A program made the translations under genes and the position numbers. A stretch of DNA of 30,200 nt from a virus (lineage: Duplodnaviria > Heunggongvirae > Uroviricota > Caudoviricetes), in the IMG/VR virus record IMGVR_UViG_2778261160_000004, one strand, 5' to 3'. This document shows positions 1,659 through 12,343 of the stretch, one piece after another. Within the stretch, counting starts at the first letter, position 1, and every line of letters starts with the position of its first letter. The notes under the pieces were generated by a model. The model had not been told where the DNA came from, searched no databases, and worked only from the letters and a program-made list of their open reading frames with translations.

Positions 1659-4130
1659 TTAAGAATCAGCCTGACTCGGGATCAGTTTTTGCCAGATAAC
1701 TGAAACGTATTTTGCCTGGTAACGGGCGTCATCAAGTGCATTATGGCGCTCACCTTCGAATGGAATAGCCGTTCTGGCATCGAAGTCTATGGCTTTCCCC
1801 AGCTCAACGATTGTGCGTACATCGCGATCGTTGTAGTAACGCCACGGGCAGGGGATCCCCTGCCGTTCGTATGAACGGCGCAAAATCGTGTTGTCGAAGT
1901 TGGCTCCATTTCCCCAAACCTGAACAAAAAATTCACCGGAGTTTTCGTCGATAAATTCCCGCAATTGTAACAGTGCATCATCTAACGGGATTTCATCGGT
2001 CATAATGGCAGATTGCGCTTCGCGTGATTGCTTAAGCCACCATTTAATGGTGTCCCGATCAATGACTCCGCCAGCAGTTTCCAGATCGATAGTCTTACTA
2101 AATTCCGGTCCCATATCTCCGGTTTGCGGATCGAAAAATATTGCACCTATTGAGATGATCGGGGCATCAGGATTTTTTCCCATGGTTTCAAGGTCGATCA
2201 TTAGATGGTCACACGTCCTGCTGGTGGATGTGATTTCGTGATGACCGTTCACCTTAATTGGGTGATCTGCCGTCTCGCCAGTTTCATTATCGCTATTGTG
2301 ATGCTGATTGCCGCCAGTGTTCTCCTTGTGTGGATGTTCAGCGCCTTCCATTTCCTCCGGATCATCTTCCTGAACTTCAACCTGATACTCTTCATCGAAT
2401 GTTTCTTGGTATGTTGCGTCGCCCATCACCGCGCCACAATCAGGGCAGTTGCCGCCGCCGGTCTGACCGCAGGCGGTGCAGACTTTTTCCACTTCCTGTT
2501 GCGCTACTGGTTCAGGCTGTTTCGTTTCTGGCTCGTTTTGTAACGCATTTGGACTGTTTTGTTCCGCTTTTTGGTAGTTCCGTTCCGATTCATGCTGGTT
2601 CTGGTTCACAGAATCGCGGGTCTGGATCCCCTTAACCCATTTCGGATCATTCGGGTCACTAATCCCTTCAACAAATTCACCACGTGATGCAGCAAGCAAC
2701 TTATCAGCGTCAGGCTGGCTGATATTGGCTGCCTGCATAATTTTGTTTACTTCGTCAGCGGTAACTTTTATCGGCTCTGGTTGTTCTGAATCTTCAGCGG
2801 TATCTACATTTTGCGGTAAGCCCGTGTATGTGCCATTTTTTCGGGCAAAATATTCTTCTTTTGTGATTTCAGTGGCGCCAGCAGCCAGTGCCTTATCCAG
2901 ACCAGAAAGTTTGTTTGCGCGACCGTATTTTTCTCCGTCCTTATCTGCGAAGAGGAAATAGAACGGCCCCTCACGCTCTACAGATGGTTCAGCTTCCGGC
3001 GCGGTTTCATTTTTTGGGATATCAGATACCTCAGTTTCCACTGCATCAGTTTGTGTTTCTGATGACTGGAGAACATCAACAGTGCCCAGGTCTGTTTCTT
3101 CATTCTCAAACACGCCCTTTGTCGTCAGGTATTCGCAGATATATTTGTTCAGTGCTACGGGATCTTTGTGAATGTCGATCGGACGCTCACGGACAAGGCC
3201 AAAAATAGTCTGGCGGTCGTAGCGAAGGGCATCAGGCTGTTTGCGCATTGATGCCGAGATACGCTTCCAGTCTTCGCGGTCGTTGTCGATAACTTCTTTT
3301 TTTGCCCAGCGATGGATGCTGCCGTCAATGTTTCCGGCATCCACATCACCAGGCCAGAGAGCGTAGGCCAGTTCGTCATCCAGTGTTTTCCATGTCTGCT
3401 TGTATTCGCGATGAATGGCAGCAATGACCGGGCTGATTTTTCCTGTTGAATTTTCAGTGTACTGTTGATTGGCTCTGGCGCGTGCGAGATCAACAACAGA
3501 CGTGTATTTTCCGGTTTCCTTGCGTTCACCTTCGCGACGTTTTTTCCAGATGCGCATCTCTGCCTGAATTTCGGGCCATTTAGCACCAGGAATACATTTA
3601 TGCTTAACCCACCCAATGGCGTGCAACTTAAGCTCCGGATACATGGCGTTAACTTCTGGCATTTTCATCAACGCTTCAACGATATGTCCGTCGAATGTTG
3701 CCATGTCTTCCTGCAACAATTCCTGTGCGCTAATAACCATATCAACGGTGATGTTTTCACATGTGTCGAACTTAACCATGACAGCGTTCTGTACTTCAGG
3801 GGCCAGCTTGTCAAAAGTGACGTTCATCGGATCGGATTCAGTCTCAATCGGGACAAAAGAAGCAGACTCCTCATCCCAGCGGTTTTCCTGCATATATTCA
3901 GCATCCCATGAATCGAGGGCAGGGCGGGGTATGCCAGGTTTATCCTCGCAGACAATAAATTTATAAGCGCAGTCCTGAGCAGCCGGATAATGTTCCAGGA
4001 ATTGCCAGTGAAATTTTGCTCGAGCACGGCGTTCGTCGCCAGCTTCAATGGCTGTGGCTACAGCCACAGCGCCTTCTTCCCTTGTTGCCAGTTCGTCAGG
4101 AATAGCGGCGCAAATAAAGACTTTACTCAT
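1659..4130 (-). CDS. Large early-operon protein with C-terminal DEDDh (DnaQ-like) 3'-5' exonuclease domain
   Basis: 823-aa ORF. C-terminal third carries the three exonuclease motifs in order: MIDLETMG (Exo I, D-x-E), WGNGANFDNTIL (Exo II), HNALDDARYQAKY (Exo III, H-x4-D). A Cys cluster (CTACGQTGGGNCPDCG) lies mid-protein. Occupies the position of ydfE in K-12 Qin. Confidence 0.8.
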   Translation of the reverse strand: MSKVFICAAIPDELATREEGAVAVATAIEAGDERRARAKFHWQFLEHYPAAQDCAYKFIVCEDKPGIPRPALDSWDAEYMQENRWDEESASFVPIETESDPMNVTFDKLAPEVQNAVMVKFDTCENITVDMVISAQELLQEDMATFDGHIVEALMKMPEVNAMYPELKLHAIGWVKHKCIPGAKWPEIQAEMRIWKKRREGERKETGKYTSVVDLARARANQQYTENSTGKISPVIAAIHREYKQTWKTLDDELAYALWPGDVDAGNIDGSIHRWAKKEVIDNDREDWKRISASMRKQPDALRYDRQTIFGLVRERPIDIHKDPVALNKYICEYLTTKGVFENEETDLGTVDVLQSSETQTDAVETEVSDIPKNETAPEAEPSVEREGPFYFLFADKDGEKYGRANKLSGLDKALAAGATEITKEEYFARKNGTYTGLPQNVDTAEDSEQPEPIKVTADEVNKIMQAANISQPDADKLLAASRGEFVEGISDPNDPKWVKGIQTRDSVNQNQHESERNYQKAEQNSPNALQNEPETKQPEPVAQQEVEKVCTACGQTGGGNCPDCGAVMGDATYQETFDEEYQVEVQEDDPEEMEGAEHPHKENTGGNQHHNSDNETGETADHPIKVNGHHEITSTSRTCDHLMIDLETMGKNPDAPIISIGAIFFDPQTGDMGPEFSKTIDLETAGGVIDRDTIKWWLKQSREAQSAIMTDEIPLDDALLQLREFIDENSGEFFVQVWGNGANFDNTILRRSYERQGIPCPWRYYNDRDVRTIVELGKAIDFDARTAIPFEGERHNALDDARYQAKYVSVIWQKLIPSQADS

Positions 4131-4223
4131 TTTGTTTTAACCTCATGACAGATTTAAGGATGAACAAATCCCTGCCATTGCTGGCATATAAGAATGAAAC
4201 CGGATATTTATTACGGAACTGTT

Positions 4224-4415
4224 TTAAAGACCTGCCGGGATTTCGATATTATCCTGGTTAATAACTTTATCGACCGGGTAACAGTTACCGGGAATTTTCT
4301 GTTCGGTTGCTGCAGTCATACACTCCGGCATTGTCCTGTGAACACTGACTGCAATATCAACTGGCACTCCGGAAACAAGAAAAACTGTCAGAACAAGCGC
4401 AAATGCTGAATTCAT
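4224..4415 (-). CDS. ydfD: YdfD-like small lysis/membrane protein
   Basis: 63 aa from internal ATG (MNSAFALVLTVFLVSG…) with hydrophobic N-terminus. Start overlaps the dicB stop as ATGA (translational coupling). Matches YdfD of K-12 Qin as I recall it. Confidence 0.7.
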   Translation of the reverse strand: MNSAFALVLTVFLVSGVPVDIAVSVHRTMPECMTAATEQKIPGNCYPVDKVINQDNIEIPAGL

Positions 4416-4600
4416 TGTGCACATCCTTTTGGCATCAGACGTAAACGAGCCAGCATTGAAACAATGCATATTTTATTTAATAGCTCCCGTTCTTGTTTTC
4501 TCTTGTTAATGGCATCTTCAGTAAATACAGGGTTACTGATAGTGACACCAATTTCAAAACAACCTTCAGACGTATTAACGTTTGGTAATAACGTTTTCAT
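4412..4600 (-). CDS. dicB: Cell division inhibitor DicB
   Basis: 62-aa product MKTLLPNVNTSEGCFEIGVTISNPVFTEDAINKRKQERELLNKICIVSMLARLRLMPKGCAQ, matching DicB from memory. GAGGA Shine-Dalgarno about 8 nt upstream of ATG at 4600. The ORF track's longer 97-aa call extends upstream without a better start. Confidence 0.82.
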   Translation of the reverse strand: MKTLLPNVNTSEGCFEIGVTISNPVFTEDAINKRKQERELLNKICIVSMLARLRLMPKGCAQ

Positions 4601-4769
4601 TATCGCGTCCTCAACAATGAATTTTGTGATGCAGTGCCTGGTGCCTCCAGGTGACGTTAACCAGTTAACAATTAACGTCGGATACAGAGAATCCACCCAT
4701 AACACTGTTTTTGGTTTTAACTGTTCCGCGTGCGCTTAGCCGCATTCACCGCATAACAAAATTCACTTT

Positions 4770-4828
4770 AAAAACGGCGGCAGAGCAGTCACGGAGTAAA
4801 ACTGATACCGCCAAACGTCACCAGAAAA
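4770..4828 (-). ncRNA. dicF: DicF small regulatory RNA (ftsZ translation inhibitor)
   Basis: Minus-strand sequence UUUCUGGUGACGUUUGGCGGUAUCAGUUUUACUCCGUGACUGCUCUGCCGCC followed by a U-run. Near-identical to DicF of K-12 as recalled; lies just upstream of dicB as in K-12. Exact 5' and 3' ends approximate. Confidence 0.8.
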
Positions 4829-5086
4829 TTGATAACAGAGGGCGTTGCAGCGGGGTTGTCACTTAAGCGTATGGTCAACCTGACAACCCGGTGTCCTCAA
4901 CGGGGAAGGAATAACCCCGCCATACTTACCGCCGCGCCATTTTGCGGGTTGCCACAACCGGAAGCGCACGGTCGAATTAAATTTAACGACACCGTACAGT
5001 GAGACGAACTTCGCCGTGCGCTTTCGTGTTGTGTGCCTGCTTTTAACCACGTCAGGCGAGGTGGTATCCTTAAAATCACCACAGTT

Positions 5087-6475: not shown

Positions 6476-6703
6476 ATGCTTAAAGTTGACGCAATTACTT
6501 TTTTTGGCAGCAAAACAAAGCTTGCCAATGCCGCAGGAGTGAGACTGGCAAGTGTTGCTGCTTGGGGGATACTGGTTCCTGAAGGTCGCGCGATGCGTCT
6601 ACAGGAGGCATCTGGCGGGGAGCTTCAGTATGATCCCAAAGTTTATGACGAATATCGTAAGACGAAGCGGGCGGGGCGGTTGAACAATGAAAATCACTCC
6701 TGA
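6476..6703 (+). CDS. dicC: Cro-like regulator DicC
   Basis: About 75 aa, (M)MLKVDAITFFGSKTKLANAAGVRLASVAAWG…YDPKVYDEYRKTKRAGRLNNENHS. AGAGGGGG Shine-Dalgarno 5 nt upstream of ATG 6476; a TTG at 6473 is an alternative start. Divergent from dicA. Confidence 0.85.
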   Translation: MLKVDAITFFGSKTKLANAAGVRLASVAAWGILVPEGRAMRLQEASGGELQYDPKVYDEYRKTKRAGRLNNENHS

Positions 6704-7208
6704 ACAGGCTCGTGAGGCTCTGGATGCCTGGATATGTCGACCAGGAATGACACAGGAGCAGGCGACGATATTAATCACTGAAGCATTCTGGGCTTTGAAA
6801 GAGCGCCCGAACATCGATGTTCAGCGTGTCACATATGAAGGTGGCGCGGTTGATCAGCGAGCGCTTAGCGTTAATCGAGTGAAGATATTCGAACGCTGGA
6901 AGGCTATCGACACCAGGGATAAGCGTGAAAAGTTCACAGCGCTAGTGCCTGCAATTATGGAGGCTATCCGGATTAGTGATTTCAGGTTGTATCGTGAGAT
7001 CAGTGATGGAAAAAGTATTACGTACATGATCGCCGGGTTAAATAAAGAATATGGCGATGTGGTGGAATCTGGACTGCTTTTTGCAGATCCTGCCGTTGTA
7101 GATCGTGAAACTGACGAACTTATAGAAAAAGCAATTGCTTTCAAGCTTGCGTATCGACAGCAATACCAACAAAAAGCTGGATGGAATTATGAGTCTTCTT
7201 TTTGCTGA
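6687..7208 (+). CDS. Hypothetical early protein, possibly a regulator
   Basis: 173-aa ORF overlapping the dicC 3' end and the replication-gene 5' end (operon-like packing). No motif recognised with confidence. Confidence 0.6.
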   Translation: MKITPEQAREALDAWICRPGMTQEQATILITEAFWALKERPNIDVQRVTYEGGAVDQRALSVNRVKIFERWKAIDTRDKREKFTALVPAIMEAIRISDFRLYREISDGKSITYMIAGLNKEYGDVVESGLLFADPAVVDRETDELIEKAIAFKLAYRQQYQQKAGWNYESSFC

Positions 7209-8194: not shown

Positions 8195-8617
8195 GTGGCA
8201 AAAGTTTTTACACAAGAAGAGCGGGAAAAAATTAAAGGGCAGGTTGTTGAACTCGTACGCCGGAGTGGGCGTGAGACGTTACGGCAACTGGAAGTCAAGA
8301 CAGGTGCGACAAGATATCTGATGAGCGTTCTCGCAAGAGAGCTGGTTGCCAGCGGCGATGTATACAACTCTGGTTACGGGTTATTCCCGTCTGAACAGGC
8401 GCGTAAGGACTGGCAAAATGCCCGTAAAAAGCTCTCAAGGGCAAAGTTGAAGAAACCATCTGCGGTTGATCCGGACCTTATCTGGTCATTACCTGACGGA
8501 GAAATACGTCGCTACGACAGGCGTCAGAACATAATCTGTCGCGAGTGCCGGAAGAGTGAAGTTATGCAGCGCATACTAGCATTCTATCAGGGAAATGCTC
8601 GATATTTATTGAAGTGA
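8195..8617 (+). CDS. Hypothetical protein (replication-module accessory)
   Basis: 140-aa ORF with GTG start preceded by AAGGGGGA. Normal GC composition, co-oriented with the replication gene. Too short for a DnaC/P-like loader. Confidence 0.6.
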   Translation: MAKVFTQEEREKIKGQVVELVRRSGRETLRQLEVKTGATRYLMSVLARELVASGDVYNSGYGLFPSEQARKDWQNARKKLSRAKLKKPSAVDPDLIWSLPDGEIRRYDRRQNIICRECRKSEVMQRILAFYQGNARYLLK

Positions 8618-8869
8618 TGAGATTAAAGTTCATTAGTTCAGATATTGATTGGCTCTTTTGTGGAGTAGGGTAGAGTTAGTGTGTTTGTCTGCTTGGTGCC
8701 AGCAGCGGATATGTTTAACAACAGAAAGCATTCAGCATGGTTAGTGGATTTGCAAAGTGGATTAGGATTTGAGAAACTTTGATGAAGTTGTAAAGCTTGT
8801 TTCTATAAAAATAGAAATTTAACTAATAGTTAAACACACCTCCAGCTTCATTGAAAAGGATTATTAGCT

Positions 8870-9769
8870 ATGATTGATCCACTTATTAGAAACTTACAGA
8901 GTGATATTGCACTACTCCAGCTTTATATCGCGCAACGCAAACAGGCAGGCTTTCATGACATGGAAAGAATAATTGAGTCATTGACCATCTTTATGTTTCG
9001 CGCGCTGAAAATGGGTGAACTGGTAAACATGAATCAGATTAAAGTTAATTTTCCCGCCATTGATTTAGCTGATAATAAAAACATGATAGCAGTTCAAGTT
9101 ACTACGAATGCAAGTCCAGCAAAAATTAAAAAAACTATCGAATCTTTTGAGAAAACAAATGAAATAGGAGAGAGTCTGAAAGATAAATACTCTACTTTAT
9201 ATATTTTTGGTTTTTGTAAAGCCTCAAGATATCTAACTCCAAGTTATTGTAAAATAATCGACCCCAGCTATTTCGTGAATGAACTTTGCGATAAAGCAGA
9301 TGAAGATATGGTCCAGGATATGATTGACGCCATTCGACGCCATCATGATTATACATCATTACATCCATGGAGTGATAAAGATTCACTCGAAATTATACTC
9401 AATATTATTAATCGCAATGCAATAAAACATCGGATGAGTTGCGAAGGCAGTCTGTCTGATATGATCGCTGGTTTAAAAGAAATTAATGAAGTAATTACAA
9501 AAGGAACAATTCAACGTAAGCAACGTTCAAAATCGATATCTGACTTCAAAGATCAAAGCATGGTGAAATTTATGAGAGGTGTAATGGATGATTTGTCTGT
9601 TATTCAAGCCATAGTGAACAAATCTAAAGTTAACCAAGGTGATATGGTTTATATAAGCCATGAAGATATGATTAATATTGATAAATTAAAAGCTAAAATA
9701 GCAAGTGATTCATCAGAGATTGCAAGGCTAAATAATATTGATATAACACTAAATGTTGTTGATTTATAA
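8870..9769 (+). CDS. Orphan cargo protein, possible N-terminal SMEK-like sensor domain; candidate defence/abortive-infection protein
   Basis: 299-aa ORF in visibly AT-rich DNA. N-terminus has the pattern …NFPAIDLADNKNMIAVQVTTNASPAKIKKTIESF… that I associate with SMEK-type domains (recollection, not a search). No catalytic motif recognised in the C-terminal half. Confidence 0.65.
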   Translation: MIDPLIRNLQSDIALLQLYIAQRKQAGFHDMERIIESLTIFMFRALKMGELVNMNQIKVNFPAIDLADNKNMIAVQVTTNASPAKIKKTIESFEKTNEIGESLKDKYSTLYIFGFCKASRYLTPSYCKIIDPSYFVNELCDKADEDMVQDMIDAIRRHHDYTSLHPWSDKDSLEIILNIINRNAIKHRMSCEGSLSDMIAGLKEINEVITKGTIQRKQRSKSISDFKDQSMVKFMRGVMDDLSVIQAIVNKSKVNQGDMVYISHEDMINIDKLKAKIASDSSEIARLNNIDITLNVVDL

Positions 9770-10083
9770 TTGTCGATTTAGCAAAACAGAGAATGCTTTG
9801 AAAATTTCACCGAGAAATATTTATTGTGAACCTCCTTATTGTTTATCGACTTTCACTCTCCGCTCATTGCAGTACTGTCGGAGAAGGCTACTATGTACAA
9901 GAAGCAGCTAACATAAGCGAGCATCACTATTGATATTAGGAAGAGTATATAAAAACTTCATGCTGAACCTTACAAAAGTAGGTAAACCGGCAATGGCCTA
10001 AGTGGCAGGGTCATGTTGATCCGGCACTGCCGAGCTAATAATTAACAAGCAAATCACTCTTTCTAATAATTTGTTGAAATAAA

Positions 10084-10743
10084 CTAAATATGTATATGTT
10101 TACCAACAACCACATATGAACTACCTGCTTTGCTCCATGATTTTATTATTTCTAAATTATTATCTGAGCATATTTTACTTACAGTATCCACATCTAATAA
10201 ACCATAATAGAAAGCATTACGAGAGTTTTGGTATATATACCCATGCAAATGTTTAATACCTCTCTCGTACCTCTTGAAATAAGAACTTTTGTATTGATTG
10301 ACAATCAGTGCTTCACCATCACTCTTTAATAATTCTCTAATCGCACTGAGGACTTTGTGAATTGTGGATTCACATGGAATTGCGGAAAGCACGTTTGCGC
10401 AAAGTATGAAATCATAATGATTTGTTATTTTATCTATATTTTCATAAGAAACGATCTTAGCATTCTTATAGTTATTTATCACGTAATCTGGAATCGTGGT
10501 TTGTACACCTCTGATAATTTGCACTCTTTCTAGTTGTCTTCTCGAATCTAAAAATGTCACAGTTTCAAATTTATTTACTAATTGTTCTGAATATCTAAGT
10601 TTTCCACATCCAAAATCAAGGGCATTGCCATTTTTATTAGTGCTTTCAATCTGTTTACAGAGATAGTTAGATGGCATAGTGTGCGGTTTCGCTGCATTTT
10701 CTGAACGTATGTTTATTCCATTTATTTTGTAATTCAAAATCAA
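10084..10743 (-). CDS. Class-I SAM-dependent methyltransferase-fold protein (not a typical DNA methyltransferase)
   Basis: 219 aa. Motif I ALDFGCGKL, acidic end of beta-2 (TVTFLDS), motif DFILCANVL. No DPPY/NPPY or PC-ENV motifs. Six nt downstream of the membrane-protein gene (operon). Confidence 0.7.
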   Translation of the reverse strand: MILNYKINGINIRSENAAKPHTMPSNYLCKQIESTNKNGNALDFGCGKLRYSEQLVNKFETVTFLDSRRQLERVQIIRGVQTTIPDYVINNYKNAKIVSYENIDKITNHYDFILCANVLSAIPCESTIHKVLSAIRELLKSDGEALIVNQYKSSYFKRYERGIKHLHGYIYQNSRNAFYYGLLDVDTVSKICSDNNLEIIKSWSKAGSSYVVVGKHIHI

Positions 10744-10749
10744 CCTCGT

Positions 10750-11457
10750 TTAAAAAATATTGTTATTGTTAAAGAATTCTTTTATTTTGCTATCAGGTAT
10801 TTGTCTTACTTGGCTTTCTGTTCTTGGTTTAACTGATGCTATGAAAATAAGGAAGTCAAATGCGACAAGAGAAATAATCCACAACCAAAGATTAATTAAA
10901 GAGCCAGTAACAGAGAATATATTTGTTAATTTGGCGATACTTATTATTAAAATAGTAACAAATGCGATTACTGTATGTTCAAAGAAAACCCAAAAGTAAT
11001 AAACTTTGTTCCAGAAAAGTTCAACGTAATGTTTGTCTTTTAACTCTTTAACTTCTGGGTAATACAGTTTACTCATTACCTTGTGAGATTCATCAGTAGT
11101 TAATTTTCTCGTAATGCCTGCAATTTTTGCTAATGGTTTAATAATTAAATGACTATCCCACATCTTCCTTATTCCAATAATTTTTGCTACATTATTATGT
11201 AGATCTAAAGCTCCACTAATTACTGACCAAAAAACTGAAGATGCAATTGGTAATATGCCAAAGGTTAATATCCATTTAATAAATTCCTCGTAGTCTTTAA
11301 CGGGGGGGATATACTTGGCATTAATGCCAACCAATGGCATGTAGCCATAAATGACTAATGATAGGTAAAATATAAATGTAGTAATAAAAGTCGCCTTATG
11401 GAGCATAGGCAACATTTCATTATAACTCTTTGGTGGTTCTAACATTTTACTCTCCAA
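10750..11457 (-). CDS. Integral membrane protein, four predicted transmembrane helices with a roughly 65-aa charged loop
   Basis: 235 aa. Hydrophobic segments at about residues 22-45, 59-84, 151-175 and 180-210. Very AT-rich. First gene of a two-gene operon with the methyltransferase-fold gene. Confidence 0.7.
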   Translation of the reverse strand: MESKMLEPPKSYNEMLPMLHKATFITTFIFYLSLVIYGYMPLVGINAKYIPPVKDYEEFIKWILTFGILPIASSVFWSVISGALDLHNNVAKIIGIRKMWDSHLIIKPLAKIAGITRKLTTDESHKVMSKLYYPEVKELKDKHYVELFWNKVYYFWVFFEHTVIAFVTILIISIAKLTNIFSVTGSLINLWLWIISLVAFDFLIFIASVKPRTESQVRQIPDSKIKEFFNNNNIF

Positions 11458-11886
11458 ACATTCAAAAAAAAGCTAATCTTCTATAATAACGAAATTCAGC
11501 TAGCACAATTAAAGATTAATTGCCACCAATTTCTTGATTTTATAATTTTATCTAAATGTTTTTGATTAATCTAGTCCTAAAAGAAACCTACTGCATAAAT
11601 ATTTATGCTGATGACCCACTCCCTGTTCGTTAACACATAGCAACGTTAGTAATGCATCCTAAGTGATCAATATTTTTGCTAGCTTCATCTGCTCGCTCAA
11701 AGGGAACTAAAATGTTGGCTTGCGTGTGACTTGGCATGTTTAAAGAAGTGCTGGTGGTGACTGGTTGCTGTTTTCCATTTCCACAGAACAAAATCATAGA
11801 AACTATACCCAATAGTTGTATTGAATCACTGACGAGACAGCCTCATATTTATCAGGACTGGTGTACGTCCAATACAGGAGGTTGTG

Positions 11887-11976: not shown

Positions 11977-12187
11977 TTTCATATTGGCGAGGTAACGGTA
12001 GTTAAGTAGAATGCCTGCGGGTGCTTGAGGCTATCTGCCTCGGGCATGAACACCAAAGGCAGATAGAGAAAAGCCCCAGTTAACATTACGCGTCCTGCAA
12101 GACGCTTAACATTAATCTGAGGCCAATTTCATGCTAGACACATGTAGGTTAGCCTCTTACGTGCCGAAAGGCAAGGAGAAGCAGGCT

Positions 12188-12343
12188 ATGAAGCAGCAAA
12201 AGGCGATGTTAATCGCCCTGATCGTCATCTGTTTAACCGTCATAGTGACGGCACTGGTAACGAGGAAAGACCTCTGCGAGGTACGAATCCGAACCGGCCA
12301 GACGGAGGTCGCTGTCTTCACAGCTTACGAACCTGAGGAGTAA
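12188..12343 (+). CDS. hokD: Hok-family membrane toxin HokD
   Basis: 51 aa: MKQQKAMLIALIVICLTVIVTALVTRKDLCEVRIRTGQTEVAVFTAYEPEE, matching HokD (RelF) as recalled. AAGGAG 8 nt upstream. The ORF-track 70-aa call is an in-frame upstream extension. Confidence 0.85.
   Translation: MKQQKAMLIALIVICLTVIVTALVTRKDLCEVRIRTGQTEVAVFTAYEPEE

Follow-up and report, generated by a model that had tools for sequence, protein, structure and literature searches.

The window, by which we mean the whole stretch of 30,200 nucleotides that was analysed, is Escherichia coli DNA with a Qin-like lambdoid prophage, and within it a block of AT-rich cargo genes flanked by a Ren-like DUF977 gene and by hokD/sok. The block holds a gene for a protein with an N-terminal SMEK domain, facing a pair of genes related to ymfD and ymfE. 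The features discussed below are as follows.

8691..8869, + strand: conserved upstream leader, presumed promoter and 5' UTR (homology to an E. coli island, L023, begins at 8691; alignment of seven contexts)
8698..11602, no strand: AT-rich cargo block, comprising the SMEK gene and the convergent ymfD/ymfE-like pair (from the composition profile, the alignment with a second E. coli lambdoid prophage, L024, and annotated identical loci)
8856..8860, + strand: AAGGA ribosome-binding site, 9 nt before the ATG; AAAGGA is invariant in 7 of 7 aligned contexts
8870..9769, + strand: coding sequence of the SMEK domain-containing protein, 299 aa, identical to RefSeq WP_021533429.1
8870..9295, + strand: N-terminal SMEK domain, aa 1-142, of PD-(D/E)XK nuclease fold
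8975-8977, 9062-9064, 9095-9097, 9101-9103 and 9122-9124, + strand: conserved SMEK residues E36, D65, Q76, T78 and K85, respectively, from the family alignment
9296..9766, + strand: C-terminal four-helix bundle, aa 143-299, family-specific
10084..10743, - strand: ymfD-like class I SAM methyltransferase, 219 aa, with Pfam methyltransferase matches, convergent with the SMEK gene; a neighbour, not a component
10750..11457, - strand: ymfE-like membrane protein, 235 aa; likewise a neighbour, not a component

The SMEK gene is real and both of its halves are under purifying selection. The open reading frame starts with ATG and encodes 299 residues, exactly as the original prediction described it; the motifs NFPAIDL, IAVQVTT and KIKKTIESF that the prediction quoted are all located in the protein, the AAGGA ribosome-binding site is present, and the methyltransferase and membrane protein genes do run convergently toward the SMEK gene. 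RefSeq names the identical protein "SMEK domain-containing protein". A hand estimate (about 33% GC, with about 7.5% of random codons being stops) puts the probability of a chance open frame of 299 codons at about 1e-10. By database search the protein has 108 homologues, in Enterobacterales, Pseudomonas, Vibrio, Xanthomonas and Burkholderiales; nearly all are 290-305 aa long and align over their full length. In pairwise comparison with five homologues dN/dS comes to 0.12-0.27, with no difference between the two halves of the protein. The low probability of the open frame, the number of homologues and the dN/dS values together argue that the frame is not a product of chance. One homologue, 87% identical to the E. 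coli protein, lies on a 3048 bp contig (L034) labelled Streptomyces sp. NPDC088196 and is most likely an enterobacterial contamination of that assembly. In two E. coli genomes the SMEK gene is annotated as two pieces, and the lengths of the matches, 899 and 901 bp, imply frameshifts; in one genome an IS5 element has entered the 3.1-kb block that contains the gene. These copies point to occasional decay of the cargo.

The prediction that the gene is cargo within a mobile element agrees with both the composition profile and the prophage annotation. GC content falls to 30-35% from about 8650 to 11700, compared with 45-52% on either side. Of 5426 E. coli genomes, 152-153 contain the 3.1-kb block (2.8% of complete genomes), on the chromosome every time; in 146 complete genomes its identity is at least 99%. 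In annotated copies the prophage is integrated beside rspAB. The order of its genes is integrase, excisionase, exonuclease, dicB/ydfD, a CI-like repressor, Cro, a YdaT-like gene, a replication gene, DUF977, the SMEK gene, the methyltransferase, the membrane protein, hokD, rem, ydfU and a Q-like antiterminator. The DUF977 gene (8195-8617, + strand), directly upstream of the cargo, matches PHROG 142, "Ren-like exclusion protein", with an E value of 3e-46. In lambdoid phages the slot after ren is the usual site of accessory cargo. Given that DUF977 is Ren-like, the SMEK gene sits in the slot just past ren, and two putative exclusion or defence genes lie side by side downstream of the replication genes. 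Other small accessory loci are found nearby. The type I toxin-antitoxin locus hokD/sok (12019-12343, + strand) begins directly past the AT-rich block, with Rfam sok scoring 118 bits at 12019-12193 and a hok/mok reading frame at 12131-12343 that includes the HokD peptide; and a reading frame at 6687-7208 (+ strand), in the interval between cro and the replication gene, is named "toxin YdaT family protein" by RefSeq and is a small accessory gene of the immunity region.

Upstream of the SMEK gene, a leader of about 180 nt is conserved in seven unrelated contexts, and the sequences diverge upstream of it. That the leader is kept in all seven and similarity is lost beyond it argues that the gene carries its own control region. 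The suggestion that the gene has its own promoter therefore holds in part: the conserved leader does travel with the gene, but a scan for sigma-70 consensus sites found none there, the best candidate by eye being TTGATG (8779-8784) and TATAAA (8804-8809) separated by a 19-nt spacer. Between this candidate -10 and the ribosome-binding site lies a perfect 8+8 palindrome, TTTAACTA-A-TAGTTAAA (8818-8834, + strand), which is only partially conserved in the other contexts. A structured RNA or riboswitch in the leader was considered and rejected, as the single-sequence z score is -0.58, the RNAalifold consensus is weak (-4.5 kcal/mol) and Rfam has no match in the leader; RNAalifold pairs 8745-8752 with the spacer between the ribosome-binding site and the ATG, a pairing backed by one-sided changes only. 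A small open reading frame noticed by eye at 8711-8782 was likewise dropped, its ATG not being conserved in the other contexts. At the other end of the gene, a consensus scan for a terminator was negative, and the convergent spacer (9770-10083) holds no inverted repeat.

The SMEK assignment of the original prediction is borne out by profile searches. Pfam SMEK_N (PF21941) matches residues 10-120 with 80.5 bits, where the threshold is 27, and NCBIfam SMEK_N (NF033859) matches residues 5-97 with 106.7 bits, where it is 30. We find that residues 1-142 adopt the PD-(D/E)XK restriction-endonuclease fold, with conserved acidic and glutamine residues on alpha1, beta2 and beta3. Among 55 family representatives with a mutual identity of no more than 50%, every one has E36, D65, Q76 and K85, and position 78 is threonine in 52 and serine in the other 3. 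The constellation E36...D65...Q76-x-T78...K85 maps to alpha1, beta2, beta3 and alpha2, the canonical active-site positions of the fold. The lysine of the canonical (D/E/Q)xK motif is replaced by threonine or serine (QVT here), and an invariant lysine, K85, follows seven residues on. K85 could stand in for the canonical lysine; given the threonine or serine at the canonical position, catalysis would depend on this substitution.

The family profile matches a single solved structure, PDB chain 26bh_D (E 3.6e-13, residues 20-139), entitled "the Mrr domain from Kordia jejudonensis Mrr-APAZ pAgo", and the Kordia SMEK-APAZ protein shares the signature NFPAIDLAD...QxT...K with the N-terminal domain of the window protein. 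A Foldseek search of the full model against the PDB gave no match below E 0.03. The SMEK domain of the APAZ partners of short Argonautes has been termed "Mrr-like (annotated as SMEK)" (bioRxiv 10.1101/2023.06.08.544223; PMC10810196), AspBHI is described as its closest nuclease homologue (bioRxiv 10.1101/2023.06.08.544223), and SMEK is listed among the effector domains at the N-terminus of LmuA in short Lamassu systems (PMC12663957). The original prediction called SMEK a sensor domain. That label is wrong, since published work handles SMEK as a nuclease effector, in keeping with the nuclease fold and the homology to the Mrr domain found here. "Mrr-like" is in turn a statement at the level of fold only; hhalign gave no kinship of the family to E. 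coli Mrr (probability 0.4%), and neither Mrr_cat nor Mrr_N of Pfam matches the window protein at E<=1.

The C-terminal part of the protein has no Pfam match even at E<=10, and its structural matches are to generic bundles only, in line with the prediction that it would lack a recognisable catalytic motif. Across the wide family, D169, R182, A184, E192, G193, G212 and K221 are conserved, and residues 211-221 form a basic loop. A HEPN RNase was considered for this domain because of the run R182-N-A-I-K-H187 (compare Rx4-6H) and was rejected: His187 is aspartate in 17 of the 55 representatives, the R182–H187 motif lies away from a helix start, and the domain matched neither a HEPN family nor a HEPN structure. 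A profile of the domain searched against 1.84 billion representative proteins returned just 92 matches. The full-length ones are proteins of 274-356 aa (mostly 290-320) with the domain at the same position, the remainder being fragments, and SMEK_N was present in all nine of the distant full-length matches that were checked. The bundle is thus seen only fused to SMEK_N and is private to this architecture rather than a shuffled module. With generic bundles as its only structural kin, a role for it as sensor or regulator can be put forward as conjecture.

The gene is a separable single-gene module that accompanies defence and addiction genes. At 21 non-redundant loci, open reading frames were called and the four on either side of the gene were compared by all-against-all BLAST; no neighbour family recurs across context types, the window and the related prophage L024 excepted. 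Between these two lambdoid prophages 8698 to 11602 aligns at 83% identity, with all three cargo genes and different flanks. The alignment with the E. coli island L023 is limited to 8691-9756, that is, the SMEK gene and 180 nt of leader, and stops at the gene end. Homologues of 77-82% protein identity are found next to a CBASS-like pair of SMODS and S_4TM genes, within a conjugative element that also carries T4SS genes, AbiGi, ArdC and a DNA methyltransferase, and at the end of an island that has an integrase. More distant homologues adjoin a complete Lamassu together with an AAA_15/21 pair, or else Abi_alpha, SLATT_5, SymE, TacAT, a helicase with a HerA-like ATPase, or an AAA-S8 protease pair. 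In Vibrio parahaemolyticus the homologue is a single-gene cassette between attC-like repeats (3767-3890 and 4861-4983 of locus L026). The gene moves alone with its leader among prophages, islands, an ICE, a plasmid and an integron. The lack of a recurrent neighbour, the solo mobility and the Vibrio cassette favour the single-gene reading, one of the two that the original prediction had offered.

Two of these loci deserve a closer description. The Vibrio locus (contig ABMALE010000026.1, 1-10856) is a superintegron-like array with 13 or more attC-like repeats, each about 120 nt long and 270-1600 bp from the next, in which the SMEK homologue occupies 3975-4856 and other cassettes encode SduA_C, FRG, DUF4160 and HNH proteins. 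In Pseudomonas (L007, 6958-9736, and also L008-L010) the homologue is followed 58 bp downstream by a same-strand gene for a 219-aa protein of no known family, and further on by a SLATT_5 protein and a 309-aa protein without an assigned family; these genes, not seen in other genera, could be a local operon.

A scan of 108 neighbours with PADLOC and Pfam identified LmuA/B, PtuA, AriA, PDC-M01A, mad3/8, S_4TM and a pPIWI-associated nuclease, no defence family being found in more than four proteins. Overall, the homologues lie beside Lamassu, CBASS, Septu/PARIS-like, Abi and toxin-antitoxin genes. Full-length family members number 0 in 50,697 records of sequenced phages, a nucleotide search of phage genomes with the 3.1-kb block gave no match, the sole match of the protein search is a SMEK_N domain at 30% coverage in a Klebsiella phage, and the family is rare on plasmids.

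How does the window protein compare with known systems that use a related nuclease? PADLOC 2.0 finds no full-length system or candidate for it; the REase part of its Argonaute-associated profile Aga_REase-PNTD1-PNTD2 alone matches, at window residues 8-146 and profile positions 9-143 of 463. In short pAgo/SMEK-APAZ systems an APAZ region lies C-terminal to the nuclease and a MID-PIWI gene is adjacent, whereas the window protein has a four-helix bundle at that place, and its gene has DUF977, ymfD-like, ymfE-like and hokD neighbours. Short Lamassu uses the same class of effector domain as the killing module of a defence system, but the C-terminal region of LmuA is missing from the window protein, PADLOC LmuA does not match it, and neither LmuB (SMC-like) nor LmuC lies in the window neighbourhood. 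In Citrobacter koseri, a homologue adjoins a complete Lamassu that has its own LmuA. Shedu (SduA) is a one-polypeptide system found in defence islands, a PD-(D/E)XK nuclease joined to a regulatory domain. A one-protein mode of action would be alike for the SMEK protein, and SduA_C lies two cassettes away in the Vibrio array; yet the Shedu nuclease is DUF4263 and the one here is SMEK_N, domain order and regulatory domain are unrelated, and PADLOC Shedu does not match the window protein.

We favour, with about even confidence, the reading that the SMEK protein is a self-contained Mrr-like PD-(D/E)XK nuclease, carried as a prophage moron and most likely protecting the lysogen against phages or mobile DNA. 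This reading draws on the SMEK identity, the fold, the conserved residues, the use of the domain as an effector elsewhere, the autonomy of the gene, its defence and mobile-element company, the moron slot and purifying selection. The company comprises Lamassu, AAA_15/21, CBASS SMODS+S_4TM, Abi_alpha, AbiGi in a T4SS element, SLATT_5, SduA_C, SymE and TacAT, and, by PADLOC, PtuA, AriA, LmuA/B and PDC-M01A. The bundle would be the regulatory part, keeping the nuclease inhibited, sensing a trigger and/or driving oligomerisation. On an infection cue the nuclease domains would be set free or assembled, and the invader would then be stopped by cleavage of DNA, directly or through abortive infection. 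The literature searched holds no published experiments on stand-alone SMEK + bundle proteins. Association with islands equally fits toxin or addiction roles, and the rarity of the family in phages and plasmids counts against a defence role. With less assurance, short of an even chance, we extend the favoured reading to the whole family: SMEK_N joined to the bundle, about 300 aa in all, may be an unrecognised family of single-gene anti-phage or anti-plasmid proteins, in which the bundle would be a new sensor or oligomerisation switch and QxT...K an active site with a relocated lysine, and whose nuclease module may later have been co-opted by short Argonaute and Lamassu systems.

The protein might instead be a constitutive restriction-like endonuclease, Type IV-like or modification-dependent, in which the helical C-terminal domain reads DNA, foreign DNA is cleaved directly and neither a trigger nor cell death is involved. 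We consider this improbable, though it is the strongest of the alternatives. Mrr-like nucleases are typical of modification-dependent enzymes, and such an enzyme would accord with AspBHI as the closest homologue (bioRxiv 10.1101/2023.06.08.544223). Neither a cognate DNA methyltransferase nor a partner gene was found, as would suit an enzyme of this kind, and the conserved basic loop K211-K221 could touch DNA. Mrr combines a D...(Q/E)xK catalytic domain with a DNA-binding N-terminal domain. In the window protein, by comparison, the nuclease is N-terminal and the second domain is a helical bundle that is not a known DNA reader, and the motif D...QxK of Mrr, MspJI and AspBHI is set against D...QxT with a downstream lysine.

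Somewhat less probable still is that the gene acts in addiction or as a self-limiting toxin, stabilising its mobile element under the control of the leader or of an unrecognised cis-encoded RNA, with its main role outside phage defence. The integron arrays and islands in which homologues reside are rich in SymE, TacAT, CbtA and hok/sok, and the conserved 180-nt leader accompanies the gene every time, both as expected of such a gene. However, an adjacent antitoxin-like reading frame is absent in all contexts, and the leader has no conserved small ORF, Rfam match or significant structure.

We give slightly less weight again to a catalytically dead nuclease fold, the protein serving as a DNA-binding regulator or scaffold. 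Replacement of the canonical (D/E)xK lysine by threonine would suit a dead enzyme, and some (older) database records name the protein "regulator", yet these names rest on no evidence and E36, D65, Q76 and K85 keep an active site-like pattern in every representative. Moreover, the homologous SMEK-APAZ/pAgo heterodimer is reported to carry out guide-directed DNA cleavage (PMC10810196, citing Kim et al. 2020).

The other half of the original prediction, that the SMEK protein is a third component of the neighbouring operon, forming a three-gene system with the YmfD-like methyltransferase and the YmfE-like membrane protein, is already largely refuted and very unlikely: one AT-rich block with all three genes is indeed common to two lambdoid prophage backbones in E. 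coli, at 83% identity, but ymfD-ymfE occur without a SMEK gene, in prophage e14 by lit, in 283 of 5426 E. coli genomes, SMEK homologues of 77-82% identity lack the pair in islands, an ICE and CBASS-adjacent loci, no ymfD/ymfE-like neighbour is found in 19 other loci, and the convergent orientation makes the SMEK gene and the pair separate transcripts. The pair itself is 68.8% identical in nucleotide sequence to ymfD-ymfE of e14, where it adjoins the gene of the Lit cell-death peptidase, and in one form or other it is present in 434 of 5426 E. coli genomes; by this homology and occurrence the uncharacterised pair is a recurrent prophage moron in its own right.

The observation as such is not new, since both the SMEK domain and the protein family have catalogue entries and RefSeq annotates the gene by its domain. 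In the literature and databases searched, the stand-alone architecture of SMEK with a private bundle is undescribed as a functional unit, and so is the way it behaves in defence contexts as a single-gene cassette that moves. Should the gene turn out not to serve defence, it is an ordinary hypothetical protein, annotated by domain, at a moron position of a prophage. If it is an autonomous defence nuclease, it would be a compact addition to E. coli prophage immunity, of 0.9 kb or about 1.1 kb with its leader. It would also identify a new regulatory domain, and it would provide a stand-alone model for the SMEK nuclease module, which is otherwise buried in Argonaute and Lamassu complexes and poorly characterised.
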